Origin: Octopus vulgaris
Taxonomy: Eukaryota
Assembly: GCA_951406725.2 (NCBI GenBank)
Contig: OX597826.1
Location: 248,001 to 312,000, forward strand
Direction: 5' to 3'
DNA: 64,000 nucleotides
In this document: positions 5,460 through 54,991 of the stretch, piece after piece
How positions within the stretch are numbered: position 1 is the stretch's first letter
How the letters are laid out: every line of letters begins with the position of its first letter
The notes under the pieces: generated by a model
The model's database searches: none
What the model saw: the letters and a program-made list of their open reading frames with translations, nothing else
Told to the model about the DNA's origin: nothing
Program-made: the position numbers and the translations under genes

Positions 5460-7207
5460 TAGTTTTATTTTTATAGCGTGCTTTCACTTCACTACAGAGC
5501 GCAGCTCTGTGTGCCTTGGGTATGTGCTGTGATTTGTTGTGATGCTCTGATGGTTATTGTATGGAAAGTGTTCTGCGTAGGATGTGTGCAGTGCCTAGTA
5601 GTGCAATTTTCTGTATGTTATATGTGTTTGTAAGTCCTGGTGTTTTTGTTATGTATTTGTCTGAATATTTTTTTATCATGCCTAATGCAGCTACTATGAT
5701 AGGAATTGTTTCTGTTTTCAGATTCCACATTCTAGTTACCTCTATTTCCAGGTCTTTGTATTTTGAGAGTTTCTCCATTTCTTTTAGAGACACGTTGTCA
5801 TCTGCCGGTATTGATACATCAATTAGAAAGCATTTTTTTTCTTCATGATCTCTGACAACTATATCTGGTCTGTTGGCCTTAATTTCTCTATCTGTGTGTA
5901 TCGGCATATCCCAGAGTATGGTTGCTTTCTCGTTTTCTGTGACCTTTTCTGGTGTGTGCCTATACCATCTTTTTTCTGTTGTTATTCCATAATGTTGGCA
6001 TAGCTTCCAATGTATGTAGGTTCCTACTCTGTCATGTCTGTGAATATATTCCTTCTTAGCCAGGACTGGGCAGCTAGAGATAATATGATTTATTGTTTCT
6101 TGTCCATCTCCACATATTCTGCAGTTACATGTAATATTTCTTTTCATTACATGTTTTTGGTAATTTCTGGTGGGGAGGCTTTGGTCTTGTGCTGCAATTA
6201 AAAATCCCTCTGTTTCTGCTTTGAGTCCTGAGCTTCTCAACCATTGCTGGGATTTTTCTTTGTCTATTTCTTTTACGTTTAGTTTAGTGCAGTATTTACC
6301 ATGAAGGGGCTTTTCTTGCCATCGTTTTATCATGGTTCGTTGCTGTTCTATTTTTAGTTTGGATTTCATTTGTTTTATAGCTTTTGTTGTTTCTTCATCA
6401 TCTTCTTCTTCTTCTTCTTCTTCTTCTTCTTCTTCTTCTTCTTCTTCATGTTTATTAGGTGGTATGATTTCTTGTTTGTATTTGTCAGCTTCCTTAAATA
6501 CTGAGAACAGTTTTTTGTTTTGCTCGTGTTTTGCTGCTATCTGGATCAGTTTTCCTTCCTTCTGAAGTAGATATTTTTGCAGTCCTATGGTGGTTATTTT
6601 ATAGTAGTTTTCCAGCTGTATAAGGCCTCTACCACCTTCTATACGTTGTATATATAGTCTTTCTATGTCAGATTTTGGGTGATGCATCCTAGATCCTGTC
6701 ATTATTTTTCTTGTTTTCCTATCTATTTTGGACAGTTCATTTCGTGTCCAGTTAAGGATATTGTAGCTGTAACTTATAACTGGGACAGCTAAAGTGTTGA
6801 TACCTATTATCTTGTTTTTAGCATTGAGCTCTGTTTTTAGTATTGATCTAACTCGTCTATAATATTCTTTTTTATTTTCTCTTTCATTTGTGTGTGTTGT
6901 GTCTTATCTAGTTCATGGATTCCTAAGTATTTGTAAGTTTGGCTTTGGTCTAATTCTTTTATTTCATTGGTTTTATCTAGTGTGATGTTGTTACTCTTAA
7001 CTAGTTTCCCTCTTTTCATGGTTACTTTGGCGCATTTTTCTAATCCAAATTTCATATCTATTTCTTTGGTAAATCCATGAACTGTCTTTAATAGTGTTTC
7101 CAGCTGTTTGTCATTTGCAGTGTATAGTTTTAGGTCATCCATATATAAAAGATGGCTGATCGTTTTGCCGTAACATTTATATCCGCATCCAGTTCTATTT
7201 AGCATTA
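5457..7207 (-). mobile_element. Dong/R4-clade RLE non-LTR retrotransposon, lineage A, 5'-truncated (RT C-half + CCHC + restriction-like endonuclease)
   Basis: HLLYMDDLKL (6837..7205), then ORF 5554..6702 with CRICGDGQETINHIISSC, RHD, RPDIVV..LIDVS, KLSKY; both ends abut (TAA)n. Confidence 0.92.
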
Positions 7208-7221
7208 CCAGTTCTATTTAG

Positions 7222-18626: not shown

Positions 18627-18737
<111 letters not shown>

Positions 18738-19095
18738 TCTATATATATACATCTATATATATATACATCTATATATATATATATATATATATACAATAAA
18801 AATGGTAAATAATTTTCCTGTGGTTTTTCATGTAACCAACAATTATTTACCGGTAAATTTCGGTATGTAAATACGACAAAATAATTGTCAAGACCTTTGT
18901 AAGGTTCAGTATATAGTAAAGAAAAATAAGTTGGCTAGCAGCGAGCTGTTTCGCCTCATACCGAAGGAATTAGAAATGGCAGTCAAAGACCGTTTTTTCC
19001 ATTTCTATAAGTGGAGATTCCAAAAACGAAGGCCCTTGCGGCTCACATACACAAAACCGGAGTGGCAAATATACGAATTCAGTCACTTACCGTTA

Positions 19096-19165
19096 ATAGC
19101 GAACACGGTGTTTCTGGATCACAAACATATAAAAAAGGGAGTTTGAATTCCTTCTTCAGCGCTAT
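19096..19165 (-). ncRNA. Type I hammerhead ribozyme of the 555-bp unit
   Basis: ATAGCG-CTGAAGA-aGGA..CAAAC...GTTTG..TCCa-GAAA-CACcGTG-TT^CGCTAT. Confidence 0.8.
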
Positions 19166-19648
19166 ATTCGTTAGCTTTATCAAATGCCACCAGCCCTCAC
19201 TTCTGACCCAGCGACATCAGATAGTGGGGGGAAGTGCGCAGATGCTAAAACCAAGTAACGACTGGGAACGTAAACTTTCCCTCCAAAATTCTGCCATGCG
19301 CGCCTTCTGGGTAATCGTAATGGAATGAGGAATCCACATGGTAATACAATAAAAATGGTAAATAATTTTCCTGTGGTTTTTCATGTAACCAACAATTATT
19401 TACCGGTAAATTTCGGTATGTAAATACGACAAAATAATTGTCAAGACCTTTGTAAGGTTCAGTATATAGTAAAGAAAAATAAGTTGGCTAGCAGCGAGCT
19501 GTTTCGCCTCATACCGAAGGAATTAGAAATGGCAGTCAAAGACCGTTTTTTCCATTTCTATAAGTAGAGATTCCAAAAACGAAGGCCCTTGCGGCTCACA
19601 TACACAAAACCGGAGTGGCAAATATACGAATTCAGTCACTTACCGTTA

Positions 19649-19719
19649 ATAGCGAACACGGTGTTTCTGGATCACAAACATATAAAAAAAGGGAGTTTGA
19701 ATTCCTTCTTCAGCGCTAT
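19649..19719 (-). ncRNA. Type I hammerhead ribozyme of the 555-bp unit
   Basis: Same motif as 19096-19165. Confidence 0.8.
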
Positions 19720-20201
19720 ATTCGTTAGCTTTATCAAATGCCACCAGCCCTCACTTCTGACCCAGCGACATCAGATAGTGGGGGGAAGTGCGCAGATGCT
19801 AAAACCAAGTAACGACTGGGAACGTAAATTTTCCCTCCAAAATTCTGCCATGCGCGCCTTCTGGGTAATCGTAATGGAATGAGGAATCCACATGGTAATA
19901 CAATAAAAATGGTAAATAATTTTCCTGTGGTTTTTCATGTAACCAACAATTATTTACCGGTAAATTTCGGTATGTAAATACGACAAAATAATTGTCAAGA
20001 CCTTTGTAAGGTTCAGTATATAGTAAAGAAAAATAAGTTGGCTAGCAGCGAGCTGTTTCGCCTCATACCGAAGGAATTAGAAATGGCAGTCAAAGACCGT
20101 TTTTTCCATTTCTATAAGTGGAGATTCCAAAACGAAGGCCCTTGCGGCTCACATACACAAAACCGGAGTGGCAAATATACGAATTCAGTCACTTACCGTT
20201 A

Positions 20202-20273
20202 ATAGCGAACACGGTGTTTCTGGATCACAAACATATAAAAAAAGGGGAGTTTGAATTCCTTCTTCAGCGCTAT
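20202..20273 (-). ncRNA. Type I hammerhead ribozyme of the 555-bp unit
   Basis: Same motif as 19096-19165. Confidence 0.8.
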
Positions 20274-20756
20274 ATTCGTTAGCTTTATCAAATGCCACCA
20301 GCCCTCACTTCTGACCCAGCGACATCAGATAGTGGGGGGAAGTGCGCAGATGCTAAAACCAAGTAACGACTGGGAACGTAAATTTTCCCTCCAAAATTCT
20401 GCCATGCGCGCCTTCTGGGTAATCGTAATGGAATGAGGAATCCACATGGTAATACAATAAAAATGGTAAATAATTTTCCTGTGGTTTTTCATGTAACCAA
20501 CAATTATTTACCGGTAAATTTTGGTATGTAAATACGACAAAATAATTGTCAAGACCTTTGTAAGGTTCAGTATATAGTAAAGAAAAATAAGTTGGCTAGC
20601 AGCGAGCTGTTTCGCCTCATACCGAAGGAATTAGAAATGGCAGTCAAAGACCGTTTTTTCCATTTTTATAAGTGGAGATTCCAAAAACGAAGGCCCTTGC
20701 GGCTCACATACACAAAACCGGAGTGGCAAATATACGAATTCAGTCACTTACCGTTA

Positions 20757-20828
20757 ATAGCGAACACGGTGTTTCTGGATCACAAACATATAAAAAAAGG
20801 GGAGTTTGAATTCCTTCTTCAGCGCTAT
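20757..20828 (-). ncRNA. Type I hammerhead ribozyme of the 555-bp unit
   Basis: Same motif as 19096-19165. Confidence 0.8.
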
Positions 20829-21430
20829 ATTCGTTAGCTTTATCAAATGCCACCAGCCCTCACTTCTGACCCAGCGACATCAGATAGTGGGGGGAAGTGC
20901 GCAGTGCTAAAACCAAGTAACGACTGGGAACGTAAATTTTCCCTCCAAAATTCTGCCATGCGCGCCTTCTGGGTAATCGTAATGGAATGAGGAATCCACA
21001 TGGTAATACAATAAAAATGATAAATAATTTTCCTGTGGTTTTTCATGTAACCAACAATTATTTACCGGTAAATTTCGGTATGTAAATACGACAAAATAAT
21101 TGTCAAGACCTTTGTAAGGTTCAGTATATAGTAAAGAAAAATAAGTTGGCTAGCAGCGAGCTGTTTCGCCTCATACCGAAGGAATTAGAAATGGCAGTCA
21201 AAGACCGTTTTTTCCATTTCTATAAGTGGAGATTCCAAAAACGAAGGCCCTTGCGGCTCACATACACAAAACCGGAGTGGCAAATATACGAATTCAGTCA
21301 CTTACCGTTAATAGGGCCTTCGTTTTTGGAATCTCCACTTATAGAAATGGAAAAAACGGTCTTTGACTGCCATTTCTAATTCCTTCGGTATGAGGCGAAA
21401 CAGCTCGCTGCTAGCCAACTTATTTTTCTT

Positions 21431-21514
<84 letters not shown>

Positions 21515-21555
21515 GTATATCTGTAAAATAATATGTGACAATTATTCAATAGCCA

Positions 21556-21618
21556 AGATAAAACTCTGAGTTTCGGAGGCCGAGGTGGAAATTCACAACA
21601 CCCTCTCTTCGGTTATCT
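21556..21618 (-). ncRNA. Type I hammerhead ribozyme, U4C core variant
   Basis: AGATAA-CCGAAGA-GAGG...CCTCc-GAAA-CTCaGAG-TT^TTATCT. Confidence 0.7.
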
Positions 21619-21833
21619 GGCCATCTGAAAAACGCTATGAAAAAAGGTTGCAACACGCAACGAAGATTTTAGGAAAATAAAAATAAGAAATAAGTGGAAA
21701 TTTTACCGGTGAGTGTGTTAAATAATAAGGCACAAAAAGAAAATGACTCTCCCCAGACACAACAGAATATGCTTCAACACACGAACTCATATAAAGAATC
21801 TTGCAAACCAAATCATAGCGTTTTCAGATGGCC

Positions 21834-21896
21834 AGATAACCGAAGAGATGGTGTTGTGGATTTCCACCTCGGCATCCGAAACTCAGAGTTTTATCT
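21834..21896 (+). ncRNA. Type I hammerhead ribozyme, U4C core variant
   Basis: AGATAA-CCGAAGA-GATG...CATCc-GAAA-CTCaGAG-TT^TTATCT. Confidence 0.7.
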
Positions 21897-22088
21897 TGGC
21901 TATTGAATAATTGTCACATTATTTTACAGATAAATTTCCTCTATTTACATAATATTGAGGTCTCTTTCTTTCTTTTGTTATCTTACCGTTTTTTACCAAT
22001 ATATATATATATATAAATATATATTTCGCTTTTTGATTTGGTTTTCAAGATTCTTTATATAAAGATTCTTTATATAAAGTCAAACATA

Positions 22089-22170
<82 letters not shown>

Positions 22171-22171
<1 letters not shown>

Positions 22172-22770
22172 GGAATATATTCACAGACACGACAGAGTTG
22201 GAACTTACATACACTGGAAGCTATGCCAACATTATGGAATAACAACAGAAAAAAGATGGTATAGGCACACACCAGAAAAGGTCACAGAAAACGAGAAAGC
22301 AACCATACTCTGGGATATGCCGATACACACAGATAGAGAAATTAAGGCCAACAGACCAGATATAGTTGTCAGAGATCATGAAGAAAAAAAATGCTTTCTA
22401 ATTGATGTATCAGTACCGGCAGATGACAACGTGTCTCTAAAAGAAATGGAGAAATTCTCAAAATACAAAGACCTGGAAATAGAGGTAACTAGAATGTGGA
22501 ATCTGAAAACAGAAACAATTCCTATCATAGTAGGTGCATTAGGCATGATAAAAAAATATTCAGACAAATACATAACAAAAACACCAGGACTTACAAACAC
22601 ATATAACATACAGAAAATTGCACTACTAGGCACTGCACACATCCTACGCAGAACACTTTCCATACAATAACCATCAGAACATCACAACAAATCACAGCAC
22701 ATACCCAAGGCACACAGAGCTGCGCTCGGTAGTGAAGTGAAAGCACGCTATAAAAATAAAAATAAAACTA

Positions 22771-22773
<3 letters not shown>
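22171..22773 (+). mobile_element. Dong/R4 lineage A 3' fragment (RLE + 3' UTR)
   Basis: ORF 22317..22670 is nearly identical to the C-terminus of 5554..6702; (TAA)n on both sides. Confidence 0.9.
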
Positions 22774-22827
<54 letters not shown>

Positions 22828-22881
22828 GTAAATATGTGACGCAGTCAAAGGAGTATGGATCAATAGCAAGTTCTAAATAAC

Positions 22882-23142
22882 ATCTGCACATTGAAATCTA
22901 GAATACCTGATGTCACCTAATATCCATTGTCATCATTATCACCACCACGCCCTCTACCGACGTCATTGATATGCGGAGCCGGGAGCAATGATAGATGTGG
23001 TGGCGAAGTGGTTGCAGGCAGCGGTGGTGGTGACGCTAGCATTAGCACAATGGCAATGACGTCGGTAGAGGGCGTGGTGGTGATAATGATGACAATGGAT
23101 ATTAGGTGACATCAGGTATTCTAGATTGCAATGTGCAGATGT
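22882..23142. repeat. ~85-bp inverted repeat with ~85-bp spacer (mirror copies at 36714-36972, 50002-50260, 55148-55405)
   Basis: atctgcacattg..tctagaatacctgatgtcacctaatatcc...gacgtcattg versus caatgacgtc...ggatattaggtgacatcaggtattctaga..caatgtgcagat. Confidence 0.85.
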
Positions 23143-23296
23143 TATTGTGTCTGCACTTATTGTTCCACCTGAGTACATTAACTTTAATAGAATGACCTCA
23201 TTACGTGGACGCTCACTCACCTTATGTACATAACTTTAATAACTATACAATCTATGACTTATGTATCACGCAGGCAGACATACAATCACACGCTCG

Positions 23297-23327
<31 letters not shown>

Positions 23328-23708
23328 TTACTCTTTTACTTGTTTCAGTCATTTGACTGCAGCCATGCTGGAGCACCGTCTTTAGTCGAGCAAATCAACC
23401 CCAGGACTTATTCTTTGTAAGCCTAGTACTTATTCTATCTCTTTTCCCGAACCGCTAAGTTACGGGGACGTAAACACACCACCATCAGTTGTCAAGCGAT
23501 GTTGGAGGGTCAAACACAGACACACACACACACACACACATATACGACAGGCTTCTTTCAGTTTCCGTCTACCAAATCCACTCACAAGGCTTTGGTCGGC
23601 CCGAGGCTATAGTGGAAGACTCTTGCCCAAGGTGCCACACAATGGGACTGAACCAGGAACCATGTGGTTGGTAAGCAAGCTACTTACCACACAGCCACTT
23701 CTGTGCCA
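23328..23708 (-). mobile_element. SINE family A
   Basis: Full body with tRNA-like head (tggctgtgtggta; ggttcagtccc). Confidence 0.8.
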
Positions 23709-23993
23709 CATGTTCACATTTTCAGTTCGAAAGCTTCCTGCCTCCATTTAAAAAAAAATTCTTTGTTTCATATACAAAACGGTGCTATTAGTCAACAGAA
23801 AACCAACACTTTCTTGTCACCGCCATCTGTCTCTAGAAAATCACGGTGCAATTAATAATGGTGCATACCAGCGATATATAAATGAGTGTGTGTGTGTGTG
23901 TGTGTTTTGCGTACTTGTATGTATGTGATTGTATATTTGTGTGTACGTGCTTGTGTGTTTGCATGTATTTGTACCTGCATATATGTGATTGTA

Positions 23994-24033
<40 letters not shown>

Positions 24034-24890
24034 CGTACGCGCGAGGTGCCAGGCTTAGTGGTTAGACTATTGAATTCACGATCTTACGATCGGGAGTTCT
24101 ATACGCGGCAGCGCGTTCTTGTTCCATTTTTCTTCCCTTTTTGGTCTTATATGTAAGTACATATTTCTTTAAACTTGGTACGACTCTATAACACTGTCTC
24201 TCTCTCCCCCTCCCCTACATTTCTCTGCTTTTCACACTTTGCACTCCACTTTGATCTGTCTCTTTCTCTCTCTCTCTCTCTCTCTCCCTCTCTTCTCCTC
24301 CTCCTTTGTTCCTTGTTCCCCTTTTTTGTCTCTTCATCTGTCCCTCTTTTCCTCACTCTTCTCCTCAAACGTGACTAACTGACCGACTGCCGGCCTTTTC
24401 ATGGTTAGCAGCCGTCGCGGCAAGACACATGTTTTTCTCTCTTTGCCCCAAGGCATTTTTCTAATGCGCCAGCTCAAAAGTTTACTCGTCCTGTCGAAAA
24501 GACGCCTGTCTGTGACTTCCTGTCTTTGTTATTATTATTATTATCATTATTGTTTTTACGTATTTTTGTATTCTTATTCGTGTAACATCGTCCATTTTCC
24601 CGTCCTTGTTTTGTATATATTCGAGGCTTTTTTCCAAGGAATCTAATGCGCTTGGCTTATATTTTCCTTTGGGGCTGGCCAGGTCGGAGCAATCTCAAGA
24701 TTAATCAGCCGAAATTGCGAGGATGATCCGGTTCTTGACTGAAGCTTGAAGGCTTCGAATGTCCCGTCCGTGTTTTTTGTATCGTCTTCTAAATGTTTTG
24801 CGTTCTTGTCCCAGTTTGTATTTTTTTATATATACATATATACATAGCGACGCCCGTACCCTTTTTGGTCTTATATCTAAGTACATATTT

Positions 24891-24930
<40 letters not shown>

Positions 24931-25934
24931 GCATATATGGGTGCAGCACGTCACCAACGGTGCAAATAAGATGACATACGTAAACAAACGAGAGTAAAAC
25001 GAGTGAAATTCGTAAAGAACGAAAAGAATGGCAAACAGGACAAGTTAACAAAAAGAAAGGACACTTCATCAGTTGTCAGCTGTCTATCTACTCATCGTTG
25101 TTTCAAGCATTCAACGATAATAATTTATGCTCCTATAAATTCTAAAATAAAATTTAGGATTTATGGAGGGTCAAAAGTTGGGAACAAAAAATGACAGTGG
25201 AGACATACAAAGAAACCGAACAAGAAAAAACATGGAGGGTCGTTAGACCAGAACGAGATGAAAATAGTGAACGCCGGGAGAAACGTATTTTTTTAAAAGA
25301 GAGAAGACAGAAAAGAGAGAGAGAGAGAGAAACACGTTCGCTCGTTTAAACGTCAGTGCAGGGAAAAGAAGATGGTCACGTGAGGAAAAGGAATATGGAC
25401 GATGGTCACGTGTGAGCAACGGGAGAGAGAGTGAGAGAGAGAAATAGAAAGAGGGGAGAAAGAGAGGGAGAGAAGAAACAGGGACAATTGAAGAAGGGGA
25501 ATATTCCTTGTGTTGTGTCTTATACTCTGTTTTTTTCGTTCTTTGAAAAAAAGTTCGTTTCTATTTTTTGTTTTTATGTTTTCGTTTCTCATTGTGTTCC
25601 ACGTTTTTTGATGTCCTGTACCCATATATCCACGCATATATACATGTATATGCAGGTATGTACATATATGTATATATGCATATATTTATATATTATTTAT
25701 ATCATATATATATATATAGTTTTAAATCTCTGACTGAGAACGATGTAGTAACAATACTGGATAGGATTATATTACTTCTTTTTGACCCCAGGCAAACATC
25801 CTTTCCGGTTGATTTATCGACACATGATCTTTGTTCTAGATATACTGTAAGCAAGGGGGTTCACAGCTCCCTTCTGTGTCTAGGACACAGATCATGTGTC
25901 AATAAACCAGCTGGAAAAGATACTTTCCTGGAGT

Positions 25935-26553
25935 TAAAAGTTGTAGCATAGTCCTATTCAGGATATATGCTATCAATCTTTACACCAACATCCCACATGA
26001 CTACGGAAGAAAAGCAATCAAATTCTGGTTGGAAAAGTATACCGAAGTACTTTTGGAACACATAAATCAGATCTTTATTATTGGATCTTTCAAATTTAAT
26101 CTTCAGCACAATTATTTCCTATTTGATGACACCTACTATCGTCAAAAATGTGGAATTGCGATGGAAACGAAAGCAGCCCCTGTTCTTGCGAACCTAATAA
26201 TGGGATATTTTGAATTCCCCATATACGAAGTGTCATTGCAGAATTATGGTTATCCATTTCACCATTATATAAGAGAAAACTGGAAAAGATACCTGGATGA
26301 CTGTTTTATCATTTGGAAGGAGACCATTGATAAACTTCAGGAATTCAAATCCATACTAAATGATATAAACCATAACATTTAATTAGCAATGGAATATAAC
26401 AGAGAACAGCTCCCATTTTTGGATGTTATGATAAAAAATGTCAACAACCAAATTATAACTGACATCTATCATAAACCAACGGACTCGAAACAATATCTCC
26501 TTTTTAGCTCATGCCACTCGACACACATCAAAATAAATATTCCTTTTAATTTG
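25935..26553 (+). pseudogene. Penelope-like element reverse transcriptase fragment
   Basis: NLYTNIPH, YYRQKCGIAMET..APVLANLIM, WKRYLDDCF, LPFLDV, DIYHKPTD..QYL..SSCH; one in-frame stop. Confidence 0.88.
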
Positions 26554-27232
26554 ACATTGAGCTGCTGCTGTCCTAAGATCCGAGAAAAAGAGATACAGTT
26601 CTTGTATTCCTCTGTGAATGTGTGTTCACTCACGGTGTTGCCATCGTGGTAGTTGTTGTTGCTATTGCATCGTTGGCACCGCCGCTGCTGCTGACGTTAT
26701 TAGTTGTGTTGTTGACATTGTTATGGCCGTCCATGAAATTTCATGTGTTTGCGTTTATGTGTGTGTGCATAGGTTCGCTTCGTATGTTGTATGTATCCAT
26801 TCCCTTCGTATAGTTTTATTTACTTATTTTATATATCTTTATGCTTTATATTTATCACAGTTATGCGACAGATATATTTATATATTTATCTATTTGTCTA
26901 TATATATATTCATTTATTTGTCTATATAGTTATTTATTTATTATTGTTTTTTATACATCTATTTCTATTTCGCATAAGTATCACAGGTAAGTGAATATAT
27001 GTATATTGTGTGTGTATTACCCTGTTTCTGTGTATTATTTACGCTTTTTTGTTTTTTCTCCTCTCTCTTCTCATCCCTACTGTCTTTAGTCATGTGGTGT
27101 GATGTGGTGGTGGATATTCTGCTCCCTTCGTGCTTTCTATTGAGGCCCGGTCTCTCTACTGTTATGTGTGTAGCCTCTGTAATCTAAGTGTTGTGTCAGT
27201 TCTTTGTTTCGATAGTACTTTAACCCCTGCTA

Positions 27233-27442
27233 TTAATCGAGCCTACATGCTTTGCCTGAGCATGTTGGTAGAGCATTGACGAGCTTTCCTTCTTTGAGCT
27301 CTCGCCAATGATCACCTATACGCTCTCCTGTGCTGCGTGCAGTCTCTCCAATGTAGATAATTGTCATGTTTCTGCACCGCCCTTCAGTACATCGTAAGCT
27401 ATACACTACATCCCTAACCTTACAGTTAACCTGTGGATTCAT
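27233..27442 (-). pseudogene. Penelope-like GIY-YIG endonuclease fragment
   Basis: NCKVRDVVYSLRC..GRC...YIGETARSTGERIGDH. Confidence 0.85.
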
Positions 27443-27937
27443 CCTACATACAGCACAAGTCTACTCCGTAAGGGGTACTTACCAAAGGGATAGGTATTGC
27501 AGATGAGGGATTTTTCGGATCTTAGGATAGCAGCAGCACAATGGGGTGAGAGGATAGAACTGAGGGGAAGGCACACTGCTGCTAAAAACTATGACACACA
27601 CACATACATATCCCCCCACACACACGCGCATAAACAAACAGTGACACAAACGCATGTGCACATAAGGATACACATCCTACAAGAAAAGAATGGAGTAAGT
27701 AGAACAAGAACACATACGAAAACGAAAGGTTTCGCTATGAAGAGGTCACAGATATGTGACGAAAGATTTCCGGACAATGGACATGAGTTAAAATATTAAA
27801 ATAAGAAAAGTAATAAACGAGTGAAGAAAAATATACAGTGCGTGTGTTTATTTGGCAAAAACAAATGACAATCCCATAATATAACAATATCTGTTTCAAC
27901 ATAAGATTTCACATCAGGAATCTTGCAAAACGAACTG

Positions 27938-27999
<62 letters not shown>

Positions 28000-28228
28000 T
28001 ATTTTATACATCTATAATTTTATAGAAGAGTTATTTGCACCATTCTTTCATGGACCTACGCGCATTTCAAGGACATCAACTGTAAACTGTGACGTGCATA
28101 TTTTGGTGTTACTGTAGATGGAGTTTCTTCAAAGTCTGTTCTTTTTGTGTATGTGTGTGTGTGTGTATGAGTGGATAGTCGAAAATATGTGTCACTCATC
28201 ACAATTGGTAGAATATACATATATTATT

Positions 28229-32748: not shown

Positions 32749-35567
32749 CAGTTCGTTTTGCAAGATTCCTGATGTGAAATCTTATGTTGAAACAGATATT
32801 GTTATATTATGGGATTGTCATTTGTTTTTGCCAAATAAACACACGCACTGTATATTTTTCTTCACTCGTTTATTACTTTTCTTATTTTAATATTTTAACT
32901 CATGTCCATTGTCCGAAATCTTCGTCACATATCTGTGACCTCTTCAGCGAAACCTTTCGTTTTCGTATGTGTTCTTGTTCTACTTACTTCATTCTTTTCT
33001 TGTAGGATGTGTATCCTTATGTACATGCGTTTGTGTCACTGTTTGTTTATGCGCGTGTGTGTGGGGGGATATGTATGTGTGTGTGTCATAGTTTTTAGCA
33101 GCAGTGTGCCTTCCTCAGTTCTATCCTCTCACCCCATTGTGCTGCTGCTATCCTAAGATCCGAAAAAATCCCTCATCTGCAATACCTATCCTTGGTAAGT
33201 ACTCTTACGGAGTAGACTTGTGCTGTATGTAGGATGAATCCACAGGTTAACTGTAAGGTTAGGGATGTAGTGTATAGCTTATGATGTACTGAAGGGCGGT
33301 GCAAAAGCATGACAATTATCTACATTTTGGAGAGACTGCACGCAGCACAGGAGAGCGTATAGGTGATCTTGGCCAGAGCTCAAAGAAGGGAAAGCTCGTC
33401 AATGCTCTACCAACATGCTCAGTGCAAAGCATGTAGGCTGATTAATAGAGGAAATTGAAACATGACAATTATTACAATAGCCAAGATAAGAGACTCAACG
33501 GTCGGAGCAGAAATCCACCACCACATCACCATCTGATAAAACGTAGGGATGAGATTATATGAGAGTGTGAGGCTAGCTGTTTGTCTGAGGGTAATTTAAC
33601 ACACAATATAAATATATTCACTTACCTTATATTTTTAAAAGTGTTGCAATAATATAAATCATATAGACAAATAAAGGAATTATATAGACAAATAGATAAA
33701 TTTTATCTGTATAACTTATAAATATAAAGCAGATATATTAAGTAAATATATATAGATATATATATAATATATATACAACATGAATATTAGAAACAATAAA
33801 TTTCAGATCATACAACACAATAAAATGGCAGTCACCGGTGCCAATATAAGTGAACAAAATAGATGGCAAATAGTGAATTAAGAGGTAAAGATGTATATTT
33901 AGGAAAGCAGCCGCAAGGAATATTTATTTTGATGTATATGGCTAAAAACAGATATTGTTTATTCCTTCGGTATGAAACAGATAATTTGGTTGCTGACACA
34001 AACATAAAAATACTGTCCTTATACTTGACAATTATTTTGGTTTTACATAGAAATTTACCAAATAATTGTTGGTTACATGATAAAACCACAGGATTATTTA
34101 CCATTTTTATTGTATTACCATGTGGAAACCATAACTGCAGAATCGTATATGGGGAATTCAAAAACCCATTATTACGTTAGCATCTGCGTTCCCCCCACTA
34201 TTTTTGGTCAGAAGTAGGTGGTGGCATATGAATAAAGCGCTGAAGAAAATTCAAACTCCTTTTATTATATGTGAAAAGTACCGGTATACTAACCAGATTT
34301 AGCTTTTCCCAGTATGTGGGATGTTCAAAGATTATATATATTGTGGTATGCACATTTTTAACTCCAATTCTTTTCGGTATTAACAGCTCGCTGCTAGCCA
34401 ACTTATTCTTATATTCTGAACAAAGATTAGTGTCGTATCAACCAAATGTTTGCCCAAAGGTAATATAATTACCATATGACATTTCCATAGAGATTTCAAT
34501 AATATATTAATTATTTATTGCTATATATATAGACATCGAATTACATTATATATCTGATAACTGTGACATCAAATGGAAACATAAAAGAAAAATCAAAAAA
34601 TAGGATGAAGAAGGAAACGCACAAACATGAAATTTTTTATGTATGTCCTGTATGTTTGTATAACATTTCTCCTCCATCTTTTGGTAAGTGATGAATTCCT
34701 ACCAACACTTCTTTTTGTGACAACACAGAAGGGAAGCTGTCTCTTTATCTTTGTTTCTCAAAAAAAAAAAGTTTTGACTGCTATTTCTATCTCGTTCTCA
34801 GTTAAGAAGCTCGCTTTGTAGCATGATTTTTATTTACTATATACTGAACTTACAAATCTAAATTTTATTTTAGTTTTAGACATAAATTTACTTAATGTGC
34901 AACATGAAAAACAGGAAATATTTCCTTTTTTTGTATTGACCATGTTTCCATTCCTCATTCTTTCGATTTCATCTTTTACTCTCGTTTGTTTACTTTCACT
35001 TACACCGTTCTTGCACCCATATATGATGATATATATTTATTTTATATTTAAAGAAATATGTTTCGTATAAGACCTCTCTCTCTATGTATATATGTATTAT
35101 TACCTGCAAACGCTTTCGATAACACGGCTGACTATTCATATTCGCTTCGGTCAAGAACGACCCTCGCAAGGTTCGTTTCTTGGAATCTCCGAAATGGAGC
35201 CCCAAAGGAAAATATAAGCCAAGCGCATTAGATTCCTTGGAAATCGAATATATACAAAACAAGGACGGGAAAATGGACGATGTTACACCAATAAGAATAC
35301 AAAAATACGTAAAAACAATAATAACAAAGACAGGAAGTCACAGACAGGCGTCTTTCGACAGGACGAGTAAACTTTTTGAGCTGGCGCATTAGAAAAATGC
35401 CTTGGGGGCAAAGAGAGAAAAACATGTGTCTTGCCGCGACGGCTGCTAACCATGAAAAGGCCGGCAGTCGGTCAGTTAGTCACGTTTGAGGAGAAGAGTG
35501 AGGAAAAGAGGGACAGATGAAGAGACAAAAAAGGGGAACAAGGAACAAAGGAGGAGGAGAAGAGAGG

Positions 35568-35599
<32 letters not shown>

Positions 35600-35828
35600 C
35601 AGATCAAAGTGGAGTGCAAAGTAAAGTAGAAAAGCAGAGAAATGTAGGGGAGGGGGGAGAGAGAGACAGTGTTATAGAGTCGTACCAAGTTTAAAGAAAT
35701 ATGTACTTACATATAAGACCAAAAAGGGAAGAAAAATGGAACAAGAACGCGCTGCCGCGTATAGAACTCCCGATCGTAAGATCGTGAATTCAATAGTCTA
35801 ACCACTAAGCCTGGCACCTCGCGCGTAG

Positions 35829-35864
<36 letters not shown>

Positions 35865-36147
35865 TACAATCACATATATGCAGGTACAAATACATGCAAA
35901 CACACAAGCACGTACACACAAATATACAATCACATACATACAAGTACGCAAACACACACACACACACACACTCATTTATATATCGCTGGTATGCACCATT
36001 ATTAATTGCACCGTGATTTCAGAGACAGATGGCGGTGACAAGAAAGTGTTGGTTTTCTGTTGACTAATAGCACCGTTTTGTATATGAAACAAAGAATTTT
36101 TTTTTTAAATGGAGGCAGGAGCTTTCGAACTGAAAATGTGAACATGT

Positions 36148-36523
36148 GGCACAGAAGTGGCTGTGTGGTAAGTAGCTTGCTTACCAACCACATGGTTCCT
36201 GGTTCAGTCCCATTGTGTGGCACCTTGGGCAGAGGTCTTCCATATAGCCTCGGGCCGACCAAAGCCTTGTGAGTGGATTTGGTAGACGGAAACTGAAAGA
36301 AGCCTGTCGTATATGTGTGTGTGTGTGTGTGTGTCTGTGTTTGACCCTCCAACATCGCTTGACAACTGATGGTGGTGTGTTTACGTCCCCGTAACTTAGC
36401 GGTTCGGGAAAAGGGATAGAATAAGTACTAGGCTTACAAAGAATAAGTCCTGGGGTTGGATTGCAGACTAAAGACGGTGCTCCAGCATGGCTGCAGTCAA
36501 ATGACTGAAACAAGCAAAAGAGT

Positions 36524-36525
<2 letters not shown>
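36148..36525 (+). mobile_element. SINE family A (mirror of 23328)
   Basis: Reverse complement of 23328-23708. Confidence 0.8.
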
Positions 36526-36558
<33 letters not shown>

Positions 36559-37859
36559 CGAGCGTGTGATTGTATGTCTGCCTGCGTGATACATAAGTCA
36601 TAGATTGTATAGTTATTAAAGTTATGTACATAAGGTGAGTGAGCGTCCACGTAATGAGGTCATTATATTAAAGTTAATGTACTCAGGTGGAACAATAAGT
36701 GTAGACACAATAACATCTGCACATTGCAATCTAGAATACCTGATGTCACCTAATATCCATTGTCATCATTATCACCACCACGCCCTCTACCGACGTCATT
36801 GCCATTGTGCTAATGCTAGCGTCACCACCACCGCTGCCTGCAACCACTTCGCCACCACATCTATCATTGCTCCCGGCTCCGCATATCAATGACGTCGGTA
36901 GAGGGCGTGGTGGTGATAATGATGACAATGGATATTAGGTGATATCAGGTATTCTAGATTTCAATGTGCAGATGTTATTTAGAACTTGCTATTGATCCAT
37001 ACTCCTGCGTCACATATTTACTTATTTATTATTTTGACTGCGTCACATATTTAGAGTGGCTGTGTGTAAGTTTGGATTTTCCTGGTTCAGTCCCAGTGTA
37101 TGTGCACAAGAGTTATATGGGACCAAAGCCTTGTGAGTGTGGTAGAGTCTGAAACATGCCAGCACCACATGAAGTGGCTGACTTCGACCCTCCACATCGC
37201 TTACTCTATCGGGCGATAGAGTCTCCACTAGAGCCTCGGGTACGTACACAATAGAATAACACAGGCTACAAAAGTCCTGTTGGTTAATTTCTCACTGTAG
37301 GACGGCATATCCCAGCATGGCGTCGTGACCTGGTGAAACATAAACATAGCGTGAGGTGTGGTGTCTGTGATATACATTTAAATTAACAAGGAAAAAGAGA
37401 TTAGAAAAGAAAGAAGTTATTAAATTCTATGTTGACAATGTCTTTATGATCTTGACAAAGCGTATGTCATTGTTATTGTATAGTTATTGAGGTGTACAGT
37501 AAGACCTCAATATTATGTAAATGAGCATTATCTGTACATAATGCGCAACAATACCGTTGTATGCAGGTGGTCCACCACCACCACACTGCAATCTAAAAAC
37601 CTGATTGTCACCTAATCATTGAGTTGTGTTATCACCAGCACACCCTCTACCGAGTCATTATTGTGTAATTAGCGTCACCACCACCACCACATCATACCAA
37701 AATCGTTGCGTGGCTCCGCATAATATTCAATGACGTCGGTAGAAGGCGTGGTGGTGATAATGATGATTTGGATTGTAATTATAATTTTACAGATGTACAT
37801 ATATTATTATTATTATATATTATATATTTTATTTATATTTACTTATATTATTATTATTA

Positions 37860-37906
<47 letters not shown>

Positions 37907-37979
37907 TATATTTTATTTTATTTATTATAGCGTGCTTATATATTATTATTCTGTATATATATATATGTTTGTTTTTTTT

Positions 37980-38079
<100 letters not shown>

Positions 38080-38174
38080 TTTTTTTTGTTTTTTTTTTTT
38101 TTTTCTAGATTTTTTTTTTTTTTTAATATTTTTTGATTTTTTTATTATTATTATTATTATTTTTTTTTTTATTA

Positions 38175-38217
<43 letters not shown>

Positions 38218-38328
38218 TTTTATTATTATTATTATTATATTGCTTGATTTTTTATGTTTTATATATTTTATATCTTTTATTATATTTATATATATATATA
38301 TTTTTTTTTATTTTTTTTATTTTTTTTT

Positions 38329-38554
<226 letters not shown>

Positions 38555-39069
38555 ATTATATATTATTATTTTATTATTATTATTATTATTTTTTATTTTT
38601 TATATATTTAGTGAAACCAAAACATATTTTATATTATATTTATTTTTTATATATTTTGTCGTATTTATATATATATTTATATATATATAATATATATATA
38701 AAAAATAAATATATATTTATATATATATATATATTTAAAAATATATAAGATTACAAAAGAACACAAAGAGAAAAAAATGTAAATAGACCCCATAAATCCC
38801 AACAACATTCACACACAAAACAAAAGCGTAACACAAATAGCCCGCAACCTTCAATCTCCACTTATAAAAATGGAAAAAACGGTCTTTGACTGCCATTTCT
38901 AATTCCTTCGGTATGAGGCGAAACAGCCGCTGCTAGCCAACTTTTTTTTATATATATTTTATAAAAAACAATTTTATTTTTTATTTTATATAATTTTCTT
39001 TATTTTAATTATATGAAAAAAAAAACAATTATTTATTTTTTTTATATAATATTAATATTATTTTATTAT

Positions 39070-39109
<40 letters not shown>

Positions 39110-39267
39110 TATATATATATATATGTCTGCGCATATAGAATCTGATGTCGCTGGTTTCACCAAAGAAAAATAAGGGCTGATGGAATTTGATAAGAGCTGA
39201 ATATAGCGCTGAAGGAATTCAAAGACCGTTTTTTCCATTTCTATAAGTGTTTGAGATTCCAAAAACG

Positions 39268-40758
39268 ACCGTGTTCGCTATTAACGGTAAGTGACTGAAT
39301 TCGTATATTTGCCACTCCGGTTTTGTGCATGTGAGCCGCAAGGGCCTTCGTTTTTGGAATCTCCACTTATAGAAATGGAAAAAACGGTCTTTGACTGCCA
39401 TTTCTAATTCCTTCGGTATGAGGCGAAACAGCTCGCTGCTAGCCAACTTATTTTTCTTTAATATATACTGAACCTTACAAAGGTCTTGACAATTATTTTG
39501 TCGTATTTACATACCGAAATTTACCGGTAAATAATTGTTGGTTACATGAAAAACCACAGGAAATTTATTTACCATTTTTATTGTATTACCATGTGGATTC
39601 CTCATTCCATTACGATTACCCAGAAGGCGCGCATGGCAGAATTTTGGAGGGAAAATTTACGTTCCCAGTCGTTACTTGGTTTTAGCATCTGCGCACTTCC
39701 CCCCACTATCTGATGTCGCTGGGTCAGAAGTGAGGGCTGGTGGCATTTGATAAAGCTAACGAATATAGCGCTGAAGAAGGAATTCAAACTCCCCTTTTTT
39801 TATATGTTTGTGATCCAGAAACACCGTGTTCGCTATTAACGGTAAGTGACTGAATTCGTATATTTGCCACTCCGGTTTTGTGTATGTGAGCCGCAAGGGC
39901 CTTCGTTTTTGGAATCTCCACTTATAGAAATGGAAAAAACGGTCTTTGACTGCCATTTCTAATTCCTTCGGTATGAGGCGAAACAGCTCGCTGCTAGCCA
40001 ACTTATTTTTCTTTACTATATACTGAACCTTACAAAGGTCTTGACAATTATTTTGTCGTATTTACATACCGAAATTTACCGGTAAATAATTGTTGGTTAC
40101 ATGAAAAACCACAGGAAAATTATTTACCATTTTTATTGTATTACCATGTGGATTCCTCATTCCATTACGATTACCCAGAAGGCGCGCATGGCAGAATTTT
40201 GGAGGGAAAGTTTACGTTCCCAGTCGTTACTTGGTTTTAGCATCTGCGCACTTCCCCCCACTATCTGATGTCGCTGGGTCAGAAGTGAGGGCTGGTGGCA
40301 TTTGATAAAGCTAACGAATATAGCGCTGAAGAAGGAATTCAAACTCCCCTTTTTTTATATGTTTGTGATCCAGAAACACCGTGTTCGCTATTAACGGTAA
40401 GTGACTGAATTCGTATATTTGCCACTCCGGTTTTGTGTATGTGAGCCGCAAGGGCCTTCGTTTTTGGAATCTCCACTTATAGAAATGGAAAAAACGGTCT
40501 TTGACTGCCATTTCTAATTCCTTCGGTATGAGGCGAAACAGCTCGCTGCTAGCCAACTTATTTTTCTTTACTATATACTGAACCTTACAAAGGTCTTGAC
40601 AATTATTTTGTCGTATTTACATACCGAAATTTACCGGTAAATAATTGTTGGTTACATGAAAAACCACAGGAAAATTATTTACCATTTTTATTGTATTACC
40701 ATGTGGATTCCTCATTCCATTACGATTACCCAGAAGGCGCGCATGGCAGAATTTTGGA
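39268..40758 (+). mobile_element. 555-bp hammerhead unit tandem array (~2.7 copies), running into the gap
   Basis: Reverse complement of the 18791-21314 units; hammerheads at 39765-39836 and 40320-40391. Confidence 0.88.
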
Positions 40759-40858
40759 NNNNNNNNNNNNNNNNNNNNNNNNNNNNNNNNNNNNNNNNNN
40801 NNNNNNNNNNNNNNNNNNNNNNNNNNNNNNNNNNNNNNNNNNNNNNNNNNNNNNNNNN
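40759..40858. other. Assembly gap (100 N)
   Basis: Run of n. Confidence 0.99.
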
Positions 40859-44355: not shown

Positions 44356-45115
44356 TTAAAAACAACTGGATTTGACTCCATGTAACGATGTTTCGTAGGC
44401 TCGTAAAACGAACTTTCGAAATGTTAAGTTGCACAAAGTTAAACCAGATTCTTATTAATAATATATGTAAGGGGTAAAGACCCCCTTCGGTCATGAATGA
44501 CCATGGGATTGCACCTAGAAAGTTACCCTCCTAGACACAAGTCCGGGCAAGGTTGTTTATGGAAGACCAGCAGTCGCCCATGCATACCAGCTTCCCCTCT
44601 CCACGCCACCAGTGTTATCCAAGGGAAAGACAAAGGTCGATACAGCTTGGCACCAGTGACGTCGCAACTCATTTCTACAGCTGAGTGAACTGGAGCAACG
44701 TGAAATAAAGTGCCTTGCTCAAGAACACAACACGCAGCCCGGTCCGGGATTCGAGCTCACAACCTCACGATCGTAAGCTCGTCGCTCTAACCACTGAGCC
44801 ATGCGCCTTCAATAATATATGTATATTCTACCAATTGTGATGAGTGACACATTTTTCGACTATCCACTCATACACACACACACACATACACAAAAAGAAA
44901 ACGCACAATTATTTATAGTAGCACCAACACCTAAAAGACACTATTCATTCAGCTTCAAGATTTCTTCAGTAAATAACAGACTTTGAAGAAACTCCATCCA
45001 CAGTAACACCAAAATATGCACGTCACAGTTTACAGTTGATGTCCTTGAAATGCGCGTAGGTCCATGAAAGAATGGTGCAAATAACTCTTCTATAAAATTA
45101 TAGATGTATAAAATA

Positions 45116-45185
<70 letters not shown>

Positions 45186-45679
45186 CAGTTCGTTTTGCAA
45201 GATTCCTGATGTGAAATCTTATGTTGAAACAGATATTGTTATATTATGGGATTGTCATTTGTTTTTGCCAAATAAACACACGCACTGTATATTTTTCTTC
45301 ACTCGTTTATTACTTTTCTTATTTTAATATTTTAACTCATGTCCATTGTCCGGAAATCTTTCGTCACATATCTGTGACCTCTTCAGCGAAACCTTTCGTT
45401 TTCGTATGTGTTCTTGTTCTACTTACTCCATTCTTTTCTTGTAGGATGTGTATCCTTATGTGCACATGCGTTTGTGTCACTGTTTGTTTATGCGCGTGTG
45501 TGTGGGGGGATATGTATGTGTGTGTGTCATAGTTTTTAGCAGCAGTGTGCCTTCCCCTCAGTTCTATCCTCTCACCCCATTGTGCTGCTGCTATCCTAAG
45601 ATCCGAAAAAATCCCTCATCTGCAATACCTATCCCTTTGGTAAGTACCCCTTACGGAGTAGACTTGTGCTGTATGTAGG

Positions 45680-45880
45680 ATGAATCCACAGGTTAACTGT
45701 AAGGTTAGGGATGTAGTGTATAGCTTACGATGTACTGAAGGGCGGTGCAGAAACATGACAATTATCTACATTGGAGAGACTGCACGCAGCACAGGAGAGC
45801 GTATAGGTGATCATTGGCGAGAGCTCAAAGAAGGGAAAGCTCGTCAATGCTCTACCAACATGCTCAGGCAAAGCATGTAG
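45680..45880 (+). pseudogene. Penelope-like GIY-YIG endonuclease fragment (mirror of 27233)
   Basis: VVYSLRC...YIGETARSTGERIGDH. Confidence 0.85.
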
Positions 45881-48194: not shown

Positions 48195-48240
<46 letters not shown>

Positions 48241-49098: not shown

Positions 49099-49140
<42 letters not shown>

Positions 49141-49806: not shown

Positions 49807-49845
<39 letters not shown>

Positions 49846-50314: not shown

Positions 50315-50374
<60 letters not shown>

Positions 50375-50377
<3 letters not shown>

Positions 50378-50973: not shown

Positions 50974-51046
<73 letters not shown>

Positions 51047-51621: not shown

Positions 51622-51692
<71 letters not shown>

Positions 51693-51699
<7 letters not shown>

Positions 51700-53591
51700 A
51701 AGAAAAATAAGTTGGCTAGCAGCGAGCTGTTTCGCCTCATACCGAAGGAATTAGAAATGGCAGTCAAAGACCGTTTTTTCCATTTCTATAAGTGGAGATT
51801 CCAAAAACGAAGGCCCTATTAACGGTAAGTGACTGAATTCGTATATTTGCCACTCCGGTTTTGTGTATGTGAGCCGCAAGGGCCTTCGTTTTTGGAATCT
51901 CCACTTATAGAAATGGAAAAAACGGTCTTTGACTGCCATTTCTAATTCCTTCGGTATGAGGCGAAACAGCTCGCTGCTAGCCAACTTATTTTTCTTTACT
52001 ATATACTGAACCTTACAAAGGTCTTGACAATTATTTTGTCGTATTTACATACCGAAATTTACCGGTAAATAATTGTTGGTTACATGAAAAACCACAGGAA
52101 AATTATTTACCATTTTTATTGTATTACCATGTGGATTCCTCATTCCATTACGATTACCCAGAAGGCGCGCATGGCAGAATTTTGGAGGGAAAATTTACGT
52201 TCCCAGTCGTTACTTGGTTTTAGCATCTGCGCACTTCCCCCCACTATCTGATGTCGCTGGGTCAGAAGTGAGGGCTGGTGGCATTTGATAAAGCTAACGA
52301 ATATAGCGCTGAAGAAGGAATTCAAACTCCCCTTTTTTTATATGTTTGTGATCCAGAAACACCGTGTTCGCTATTAACGGTAAGTGACTGAATTCGTATA
52401 TTTGCCACTCCGGTTTTGTGTATGTGAGCCGCAAGGGCCTTCGTTTTTGGAATCTCCACTTATAAAAATGGAAAAAACGGTCTTTGACTGCCATTTCTAA
52501 TTCCTTCGGTATGAGGCGAAACAGCTCGCTGCTAGCCAACTTATTTTTCTTTACTATATACTGAACCTTACAAAGGTCTTGACAATTATTTTGTCGTATT
52601 TACATACCGAAATTTACCGGTAAATAATTGTTGGTTACATGAAAAACCACAGGAAAATTATTTACCATTTTTATTGTATTACCATGTGGATTCCTCATTC
52701 CATTACGATTACCCAGAAGGCGCGCATGGCAGAATTTTGGAGGGAAAATTTACGTTCCCAGTCGTTACTTGGTTTTAGCATCTGCGCACTTCCCCCCACT
52801 ATCTGATGTCGCTGGGTCAGAAGTGAGGGCTGGTGGCATTTGATAAAGCTAACGAATATAGCGCTGAAGAAGGAATTCAAACTCCCTTTTTTTATATGTT
52901 TGTGATCCAGAAACACCGTGTTCGCTATTAACGGTAAGTGACTGAATTCGTATATTTGCCACTCCGGTTTTGTGTATGTGAGCCGCAAGGGCCTTCGCTT
53001 TTTGGAATCTCCACTTATAGAAATGGAAAAAACGGTCTTTGACTGCCATTTCTAATTCCTTCGGTATGAGGCGAAACAGCTCGCTGCTAGCCAACTTATT
53101 TTTCTTTACTATATACTGAACCTTACAAAGGTCTTGACAATTATTTTGTCGTATTTACATACCGAAATTTACCGGTAAATAATTGTTGGTTACATGAAAA
53201 ACCACAGGAAAATTATTTACCATTTTTATTGTATTACCATGTGGATTCCTCATTCCATTACGATTACCCAGAAGGCGCGCATGGCAGAATTTTGGAGGGA
53301 AAATTTACGTTCCCAGTCGTTACTTGGTTTTAGCATCTGCGCACTTCCCCCCACTATCTGATGTCGCTGGGTCAGAAGTGAGGGCTGGTGGCATTTGATA
53401 AAGCTAACGAATATAGCGCTGAAGAAGGAATTCAAACTCCCCTTTTTTTATATGTTTGTGATCCAGAAACACCGTGTTCGCTATTAACGGTAAGTGACTG
53501 AATTCGTATATTTGCCACTCCGGTTTTGTGTATGTGAGCCGCAAGGGCCTTCGTTTTTGGAATCTCCACTTATAGAAATGGAAAAAACGGT
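51693..53591 (+). mobile_element. 555-bp hammerhead unit array (~3.2 copies) with leading inverted stub
   Basis: Stub 51693-51816; hammerheads at 52303-52374, 52858-52928 and 53413-53484, spaced 555 bp. Confidence 0.9.
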
Positions 53592-54234
53592 CCAAAGGAA
53601 AATATAAGCCAAGCGCATTAGATTCCTTGGAAAAAAGCCTCGAATATATACAAAACAAGGACGGGAAAATGGACGATGTTACACGAATAAGAATACAAAA
53701 ATACGTAAAAACAATAATGATAATAATAATAATAACAAAGACAGGAAGTCACAGACAGGCGTCTTTTCGACAGGACGAGTAAACTTTTGAGCTGGCGCAT
53801 TAGAAAAATGCCTTGGGGCAAAGAGAGAAAAACATGTGTCTTGCCGCGACGGCTGCTAACCATGAAAAGGCCGGCAGTCGGTCAGTTAGTCACGTTTGAG
53901 GAGAAGAGTGAGGAAAAGAGGGACAGATGAAGAGACAAAAAAGGGGAACAAGGAACAAAGGAGGAGGAGAAGAGAGGGAGAGAGAGAGAGAGAGAGAGAG
54001 AAAGAGACAGATCAAAGTGGAGTGCAAAGTGTGAAAAGCAGAGAAATGTAGGGGAGGGGGGAGAGAGAGACAGTGTTATAGAGTCGTACCAAGTTTAAAG
54101 AAATATGTACTTACATATAAGACCAAAAAGGGAAGAAAAAATGGAACAAGAACGCGCTGCCGCGTATAGAACTCCCGATCGTAAGATCGTGAATTCAATA
54201 GCCTAACCACTAAGCCTGGCACCTCACGCGTACG

Positions 54235-54276
<42 letters not shown>

Positions 54277-54726: not shown

Positions 54727-54758
<32 letters not shown>

Positions 54759-54948: not shown

Positions 54949-54991
<43 letters not shown>

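Follow-up and report, generated by a model that had tools for sequence, protein, structure and literature searches.

A hammerhead-bearing retrozyme array in a (TA)n tract of Octopus vulgaris and the probable two-primer origin of its inverted layout

Introduction

In the stretch of Octopus vulgaris DNA analysed here (64,000 nucleotides; hereafter, the window), a tandem array of hammerhead-bearing units breaks off close to a predicted ribozyme cut and continues as an inverted copy of itself, which raises the question of whether the junction records cleavage of the RNA in vivo. The initial annotation held that it does, proposing that reverse transcription primed in a (TA)n tract had copied a multimeric RNA to its hammerhead-generated 5' end and that the cDNA had then self-primed. 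The element type and the inverted layout with a tail on one arm are already known; what is added here is the statistics of the arms across the whole family, against which this index locus can be read.

Results

Architecture of the locus and its junction

The units of the array (Table 1) differ from one another by 1 to 3 mismatches and 1 to 3 gaps; the unit is 554 bp long, with a GC content of 0.40 to 0.42, the monomer folds stably (z -3.75), and the array holds no open reading frame of at least 120 amino acids. The motif CCGTTAATAGCG^AACAC, where the caret marks the predicted cut, is found in the intact units at 19090, 19643, 20196 and 20751, and in the fifth and last unit it begins at 21305 and breaks off at 21314. 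Sequence comparison confirmed that the array passes at this point, through an "ag" microhomology, into an inverted copy followed by (TA)n, the segment 21313-21439 being the exact reverse complement of 21125-21251. Given the 2-nt overlap, the forward arm ends at unit position 304 to 306, and the predicted cut falls after 308, so that the distance initially annotated as within 2 nt stands as the best case of a range of 2 to 4 nt.

Table 1. Features of the index locus and of its surroundings in the window
Feature	Position	Strand	Remarks
Arm A, tandem array	18791..21314	+	4.55 units of 553-554 bp in cDNA sense (RNA = minus strand); starts at site A (unit position 552), ends at unit 304-306; unit starts 18794, 19347, 19901, 20455, 21009
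(TA)n target, left side	18629..18793		inferred primer of arm A
(TA)n target, right side	21434..21520		inferred primer of arm B
Start site B	21125..21130	+	TATATA, unit position 117, in last unit; 119 nt from site A, the A-to-B stretch being the 119-nt "tail" carried by one arm only
Arm-joining microhomology	21313..21314		2 nt
Arm B, inverted	21313..21439	-	127 bp, unit 117-243; terminates in imperfect palindrome at unit 236-244
Type I hammerhead motif, unit 1	19096..19165	-	predicted cut 19101/19102
Type I hammerhead motif, unit 2	19649..19719	-	predicted cut 19654/19655
Type I hammerhead motif, unit 3	20202..20273	-	predicted cut 20207/20208
Type I hammerhead motif, unit 4	20757..20828	-	predicted cut 20762/20763
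Duplicate of junction and 3.2 units	51691..53592	-	inside 8.6-kb inverted duplication
Third, garbled copy	38853..40758	-	adjoins N gap (40759-40858); mixes pieces of both arms
Nested inverted and direct duplications	19541-28144 vs 44971-53592		94-99% identity, near contig start
Further duplicated blocks	22774-24689, 35187-37033, 48441-50374, 53592-55520
Low-quality A/T-rich stretch	about 37800-39100
Diverged, rearranged unit-family pieces	33500-35000		69-89% identity; no clear intact hammerhead
Long open frames with reverse transcriptase	55750-62000	-	non-LTR retrotransposon, next to (TTA)n; frames in tandem
Long open frame with reverse transcriptase	5554-7217	-	non-LTR retrotransposon, next to (TTA)n
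Long open frame with reverse transcriptase	22173-22670	+	non-LTR retrotransposon, next to (TTA)n
Decayed Penelope-like reverse transcriptase remnant	25906-26616	+	detached from array; duplicate at 46508-47578 (-)

The mirrored junction at about 51816 lies inside an 8.6-kb inverted duplication (44971-53592 against 28144-19541, 99.1% identity) and, as had been recognised at the outset, is not independent; this duplicate differs from the array by 3 mismatches and 16 gap positions over about 2,160 nt. The third copy is probably the product of a poor assembly consensus, and the nested duplications around the locus represent either a real segmental duplication or a misassembly. None of the contigs listed from four public sequencing runs bridges the junction (287 further pieces stand outside that list), and the sole "joint" reported from them is a plain intact unit.

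The predicted hammerhead

In the motif of unit 4 it is possible to recognise a 6-bp stem I, a CUGAAGA core, a long stem II, the GAAA element, a near-palindromic stem III and a GUU triplet. Stem II has one extra base on either side, and the G-C pair at 10.1-11.1 is present but displaced by one base on each side of the core. The array motifs follow the pattern CUGANGA...GAAA...UH with the ends closed by stem I, and the presence of four complete motifs in 4.55 non-coding units corresponds to the tandem organisation of a retrozyme. The catalytic fold lies about 4 kcal/mol above the lowest-energy fold. In Rfam, the whole window gave no match at the gathering score, and the interval 20100-21500 gave at E<=10 sub-threshold matches only, the best of which was caused by the inverted repeat itself.

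Across 152 copies of the motif, the core reads CUGAAGA in 58, CUGAUGA in 46 and CCGAUGA in 31, with U3-A8 variants in 12 and five others. In 15 haplotypes hand-chosen from this variation, 98.5% of the cells are paired, and double (compensatory) changes affect three stem I pairs, one stem II pair and the C3-G8 pair (replaced by U3-A8), compared to none in slid controls; since these changes mostly trace to one split between subfamilies that are 83-85% identical, they represent few independent events. The hammerhead and the cut position predicted by the initial annotation are thus supported by covariation. An interplay between C3 and G8 is described for the hammerhead of a Penelope-like element (PLE) in PMC11167929, and PMC4209133 lists among PLE-hammerhead traits both a palindrome in stem III and an additional base following the core on the 5' side.

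Two subfamilies deserve separate mention. The one with the CCGAUGA core (U4 replaced by C, 31 of the 152 motif copies; L060-L067, L164 and L189-L194) has spread, so that either the core change is tolerated or spreading needs no cleavage. A sister subfamily (L179 and relatives), 83-85% identical to the unit of the window and endowed with the U3-A8 core, is young, with best copies 96-100% identical, and close to the end of one contig it forms an array that reaches at least 7 units (G000 C18:83923513-83927121). Its candidate copies number about 940.

Copies of the family throughout the genome

The genome surveyed (2.8 Gb in 227 contigs, rich in microsatellites) gave 1,137 candidate copies at first look. 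We parsed 174 loci, spread over many contigs: the index locus, 37 loci retrieved by similarity, 53 by the site-B motif (the new ones among the first 100 of 165 matches listed), 3 by a cut-region pattern and 80 by start patterns (67 starting at A, comprising every new one listed, and 13 starting at B, out of 19 new ones). Inverted loci number 99, single-armed loci 69 and complex loci 6. The two-arm layout is the usual shape of the family, and the index locus is one of many copies.

The outer arm ends pile up at two unit positions abutting (TA)n, namely, A (552) and B (117). Seventy of the 99 inverted loci combine one A with one B arm, none combines A with A or B with B, and in the other 29 one arm comes from elsewhere, the odd starts being often short TA-like words or eroded B ends. 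Furthermore, single arms derive from both sites (32 from A and 37 from B). The exact-pattern lists, whose pairs overlap with the fetched loci, contain by eye 18 A+B pairs and neither A+A nor B+B pairs (100 of 107 A and 65 of 65 B sites listed), and A starts adjoin (TA)n at 107 exact-pattern sites genome-wide. The complex locus L231 has an apparent B+B structure, which by eye resolves into a deleted A arm and a B arm.

No LTRs were seen at the copies, whose ends adjoin (TA)n. The family is dispersed and multi-copy, lies below the 45% GC that delimits non-LTR retrozymes, and presents the Penelope-like signature of a microsatellite target, an inverted truncated copy and a tail at one end only. 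By the features considered, the unit would be classified from its sequence as a non-LTR retrozyme with a Penelope insertion signature. Moreover, the RNA-mediated origin and the priming at (TA)n put forward in the initial annotation find support in the family loci, where sites A and B abut (TA)n.

A two-primer model of insertion

We consider it likely that Penelope-type inversions have a two-primer origin, in which two reverse transcriptases would copy one RNA from two fixed sites, one for each target strand. A Penelope-like reverse transcriptase/GIY-YIG protein would cut both strands of (TA)n; the two 3' ends would prime on the same RNA, one at the internal site A and the other 119 nt from it, at site B; each cDNA would then run for a variable distance, passing the hammerhead sites on an uncut multimer or circle, and the two cDNA 3' ends would finally be joined by microhomology. 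The product would be an inversion, head-to-head in the RNA sense, with the tail on one arm, and single arms would correspond to events with one effective primer. As for the index locus, with somewhat less assurance we favour its being a 554-bp hammerhead-bearing retrozyme inserted into (TA)n by a Penelope-like reverse transcriptase/endonuclease through two primings on a single RNA, the nearness of the junction to the cut being due to chance.

Circular templates have been proposed (PMC4209133 and PMC7229834). No other array of its subfamily among 40 scored loci is as long as the index array, and subfamily variants are common to all passes of a locus in 211 of 217 non-CpG cases, which together fit a circular template. 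We had also considered that an array of this length requires a circle, an argument that we abandoned because the sister-subfamily array reaches at least 7 units, so that a linear multimer is still possible.

Arm ends and the predicted cut

Whether arms end at the cut was examined on 259 arm ends from 164 loci (excluding the index locus, the 3 loci selected by their cut region and the 6 complex loci), mapped with microhomology intervals and five real reference units. Approximately 180 to 185 passes reach the cut in these loci, and about 95% of them carry on through it. At positions 304-312 (cut ±4 nt) 8.3 ends fall, compared to 4.06 expected under a constant stopping rate (P 0.055), with P values of 0.05 to 0.15 under local-flank nulls and of 0.07 under a jitter null. 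In the first 89 loci the counts are 2.8 against 2.25 at 304-312 and 1 against 1.25 at 306-310; in the 75 start-selected loci they are 5.5 against 1.7 at 304-312 (P 0.008), and this second sample weakened the view, drawn from the first, that there is no excess at all. The ambiguity interval includes 308 in three loci (L045, L238 and L201, compared to 1.26 expected; P 0.13), a fourth locus (L190) is compatible by eye with the exact cut, and two others (L177 and L196) stop at 304-306, as the index locus does. A pattern test found no stop at 304-308 among the first 100 of 211 listed copies; it was given little weight because its filter missed L238, whose end is compatible with the cut. A base other than C at position 311 occurs in 6 copies genome-wide, with only the index junction and its duplicate truncated at 304-308. 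The probability that either end falls by chance within ±2 nt of the cut is about 1.8% per inverted locus and about 60% for some locus among 50.

The strongest cluster of arm ends lies at unit 208-246 (window 21216-21254 in the last unit) and includes arm B of the index locus. It contains 44 ends compared to 23 expected (41 compared to 28 under the jitter null, P 0.003); a pause site, a transcription start and colliding polymerases are candidate readings. A narrower hotspot at unit 243-244 fell, once microhomology intervals were taken into account, to 6.1 ends compared to 3.2 expected (jitter P 0.41), and we discarded it.

These counts bear on the best-surviving alternative, namely, that two primers were used but that the synthesis of arm A reached the 5' end of a linear RNA cleaved by the hammerhead, 2 to 4 nt then being lost at the join. 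The cut site had been named before the test, the excess around it is twofold overall and threefold in the start-selected subset, only 26 of the 554 possible 9-nt windows score as high as 304-312, four loci are compatible with the exact cut, and the hammerhead covaries as a selected ribozyme would. However, there is no excess in the first 89 loci, the cluster at unit 208-246 is stronger, the junction interval of the index locus excludes 308, and its arm A passed four intact hammerheads, none of which could then have been cleaved on that RNA; a genuine excess would still leave about half of the ends near the cut attributable to background. We regard this reading as unlikely. If it were true, the junction would be a footprint of cleavage in vivo left by a minority class of events. 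A broader version, to which we assign the same low probability, holds that the inversions are two-primer products, with the trailing enzyme often stalling behind the leader, and that a few percent of them, including the index locus, derive from hammerhead-cut linear RNA, in which case the 5' end of a cut RNA would be fossilised in the genome at this locus. Thus, a small class of cut-end templates is possible, if unproven; that the index junction belongs to it appears doubtful, if slightly less so than either of these readings in full, and the nearness of the junction to the predicted cut is probably due to chance.

Two independent arms or a fold-back

Self-priming, the second step proposed initially, would have the cDNA of arm A (or an antisense RNA, as suggested for Penelope in the account of PMC3846280) prime on itself through a 2-nt match, copy back to the TATATA of site B and be transferred to the target. 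Such a fold-back requires one arm to be wholly contained in the other. Neither arm contains the other in 30 of the 70 A+B loci (38 of all 99 inverted loci), and the permutation mean for the 70 is 29.4; it follows that the arm lengths are independent and that fold-back, impossible in these 30 loci, is refuted as the general mechanism. Moreover, it does not account for loci with a long B and a short A arm that terminate exactly at site A (L066, L067 and L105), nor for single arms starting at B.

At the index locus the geometry of a fold-back is permitted, and the last unit includes the whole of arm B without a mismatch; however, arm B matches unit 1 just as exactly, so that the identity does not point to the last unit, and a 2-bp primer closing a 61-nt loop is weak. 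Elsewhere in the family, turns with a near-zero loop occur at palindromes in L079, L120, L103, L222 and L228, pairs with a short loop and a permitted fold-back number 12 compared to 7.1 expected (P 0.045), and it is from palindromes at inverted junctions that PMC3846280, where it treats these, infers self-priming. A few of the palindrome-turn loci may be true fold-backs, but for the index locus we deem this explanation quite improbable.

The arms of one locus nevertheless behave as copies of one RNA. They differ from each other by 0.7%, compared to 3.2% from other loci (34 loci), and private variants are common to both arms in L054 and L072, where fold-back is impossible; gene conversion or a single source locus could alternatively produce this similarity. 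On the unit circle, the distance between the two arm ends is at most 35 nt in 22 of the 70 A+B loci (11.0 expected, P 0.0004) and in 10 loci of the fold-back-impossible class (4.0 expected); in 9 of these 10, arm A stops 7 to 27 nt behind arm B, as a trailing polymerase on the same RNA would give. Finally, 46 of the 99 inverted loci have a junction overlap of at least 2 nt, compared to 17% for random ends.

Since most passes read through the cut and the arms are independent, the index junction is not demonstrated evidence of ribozyme activity in vivo, and neither copying to a hammerhead-generated 5' end, as proposed in the initial annotation, nor the accumulation of truncation points at the cut, on which its own test rested, is borne out by the bulk of the copies.

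A DNA-level inversion after insertion, or an artefact of assembling this complex region close to the end of the contig, could be suspected from the large inverted duplications, the N gap, the garbled third copy and the lack of a junction-bridging contig among those listed, but it is highly improbable, given that the same junction occurs in two assembled copies and that the outer end of the inverted arm lies exactly at site B against (TA)n, as in 70 loci genome-wide, a site that neither rearrangement nor artefact would pick.

Candidate mobilisers

The unit lacks the open reading frame with reverse transcriptase and GIY-YIG domains of an autonomous PLE, and where PLE protein matches occur near the loci, they represent separate remnants in the flanking DNA. 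Among the few families examined of thousands of PLE candidates, we found no autonomous element with significant homology to the unit. Two young families are possible candidate mobilisers only. The first (753 to 764 amino acids; L147-L156) has many intact frames with a reverse transcriptase, a CX4CxxC linker and a GIY-YIG domain below the Pfam cut-off, and by the linker criterion, as given in the relevant part of PMC8557442, would be of the Neptune or Nematis type. It is inserted in (TA)n, with both outer ends at two sites in 5 of 10 loci, all of them A'+B', and a 45-nt tail. Its pseudo-LTR shows no significant homology to the unit (local score 22, shuffle mean 23), the only likeness being a stretch of 17 nt at site B (P 0.013, post hoc), and a descriptor search found no hammerhead in it. 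Large inverted insertions occur in this family, one with up to 4.3 kb per arm.

The second family, a GIY-YIG PLE of 781 amino acids (L247, at approximately 2780-2930, and L252), carries tandem subrepeats of about 90 nt in its 3' region. By eye, its (TA)n end is closely preceded by a minimal hammerhead-like motif that did not pass the stem I filter; the U3-A8 core and the palindrome in stem III of this motif match those of the sister subfamily. No alignment was obtained between this family and the unit. The decayed reverse transcriptase remnant of the window is about 60% identical to the young 753-amino-acid family, and a Pfam search of it gave no match.

Discussion

The unit resembles the metazoan non-LTR retrozymes described by Cervera and de la Pena in 2020 (PMC7229834) and in the preprint of Li, Clavereau and Pollet of 2026 (10.64898/2026.07.22.740005), which in the portions of these sources relevant here are short, non-coding, low-GC tandems with a type I hammerhead in each unit, dispersed, as in this family, as monomers to multimers, and are proposed to be non-autonomous derivatives of PLEs. 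At 554 bp it exceeds the usual 150 to 450 bp but lies within the range of 150 to >1000 nt given in the discussion of PMC7229834. Different from the usual retrozymes as these texts present them, it has a hammerhead whose stem II gains a base on either side and whose core exists in three variants, depending on the subfamily. No paper on this octopus hammerhead family was found among the articles listed in the literature search, the main text of PMC13282606 contains neither "ribozyme" nor "retrozyme", and PMC6155905 contributed nothing relevant.

With the endonuclease-bearing PLEs of the Neptune type (Craig et al. 2021, PMC8557442; Arkhipova et al. 2013, PMC3846280), the family shares, as far as their descriptions of insertions go, the (TA)n targets, the partial tandems and the inverted 5'-truncated copy adjoining the element, with a tail at one end only. 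Unlike those elements, the unit has no open reading frame, its tail measures 119 nt instead of 30 to 40, and none of the pseudo-LTRs from the autonomous families that we examined shows significant homology to it. The formation of Penelope-type inversions is listed as unresolved in the corresponding passage of PMC8557442, and the account of PMC3846280 explains them by self-priming, which the 30 octopus loci exclude.

The in vitro work on Poseidon of Anolis (Frangieh et al. 2024, PMC11167929) reports, in the sections considered here, that the PLE protein cuts and extends both target strands, that two internal RNA start sites downstream of the hammerhead delimit the tail, and that hammerhead cleavage is dispensable, with no RNA-seq reads ending at the cut. 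The start site does not differ between the two strands in that system, different from the strict one-A-one-B rule of the octopus family, and the same sections do not link the two starts to the inverted layout. An explicit two-primer account of PLE inversions was not found among the articles listed in the literature search.

A further parallel is the twin priming of L1, in which the second target strand primes the same RNA and the cDNAs are joined by microhomology to give an inversion. In L1 the position of the second priming varies and there is hardly any overlap between the arms; the octopus family has two fixed start sites, and its arms overlap without restriction, in many cases over more than one unit.

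As regards the ribozyme, its role is bounded by the family, in that at most a few percent of the passes end at the cut, in agreement with the dispensability of cleavage in vitro; if the weak excess at the cut holds in the full set of copies, it would constitute genomic evidence of hammerhead cleavage in vivo. As regards the insertion, the short non-coding unit provides many clean events in one genome, and the family counts separate two models of Penelope-type inversion, namely, self-priming and two primings on one RNA.
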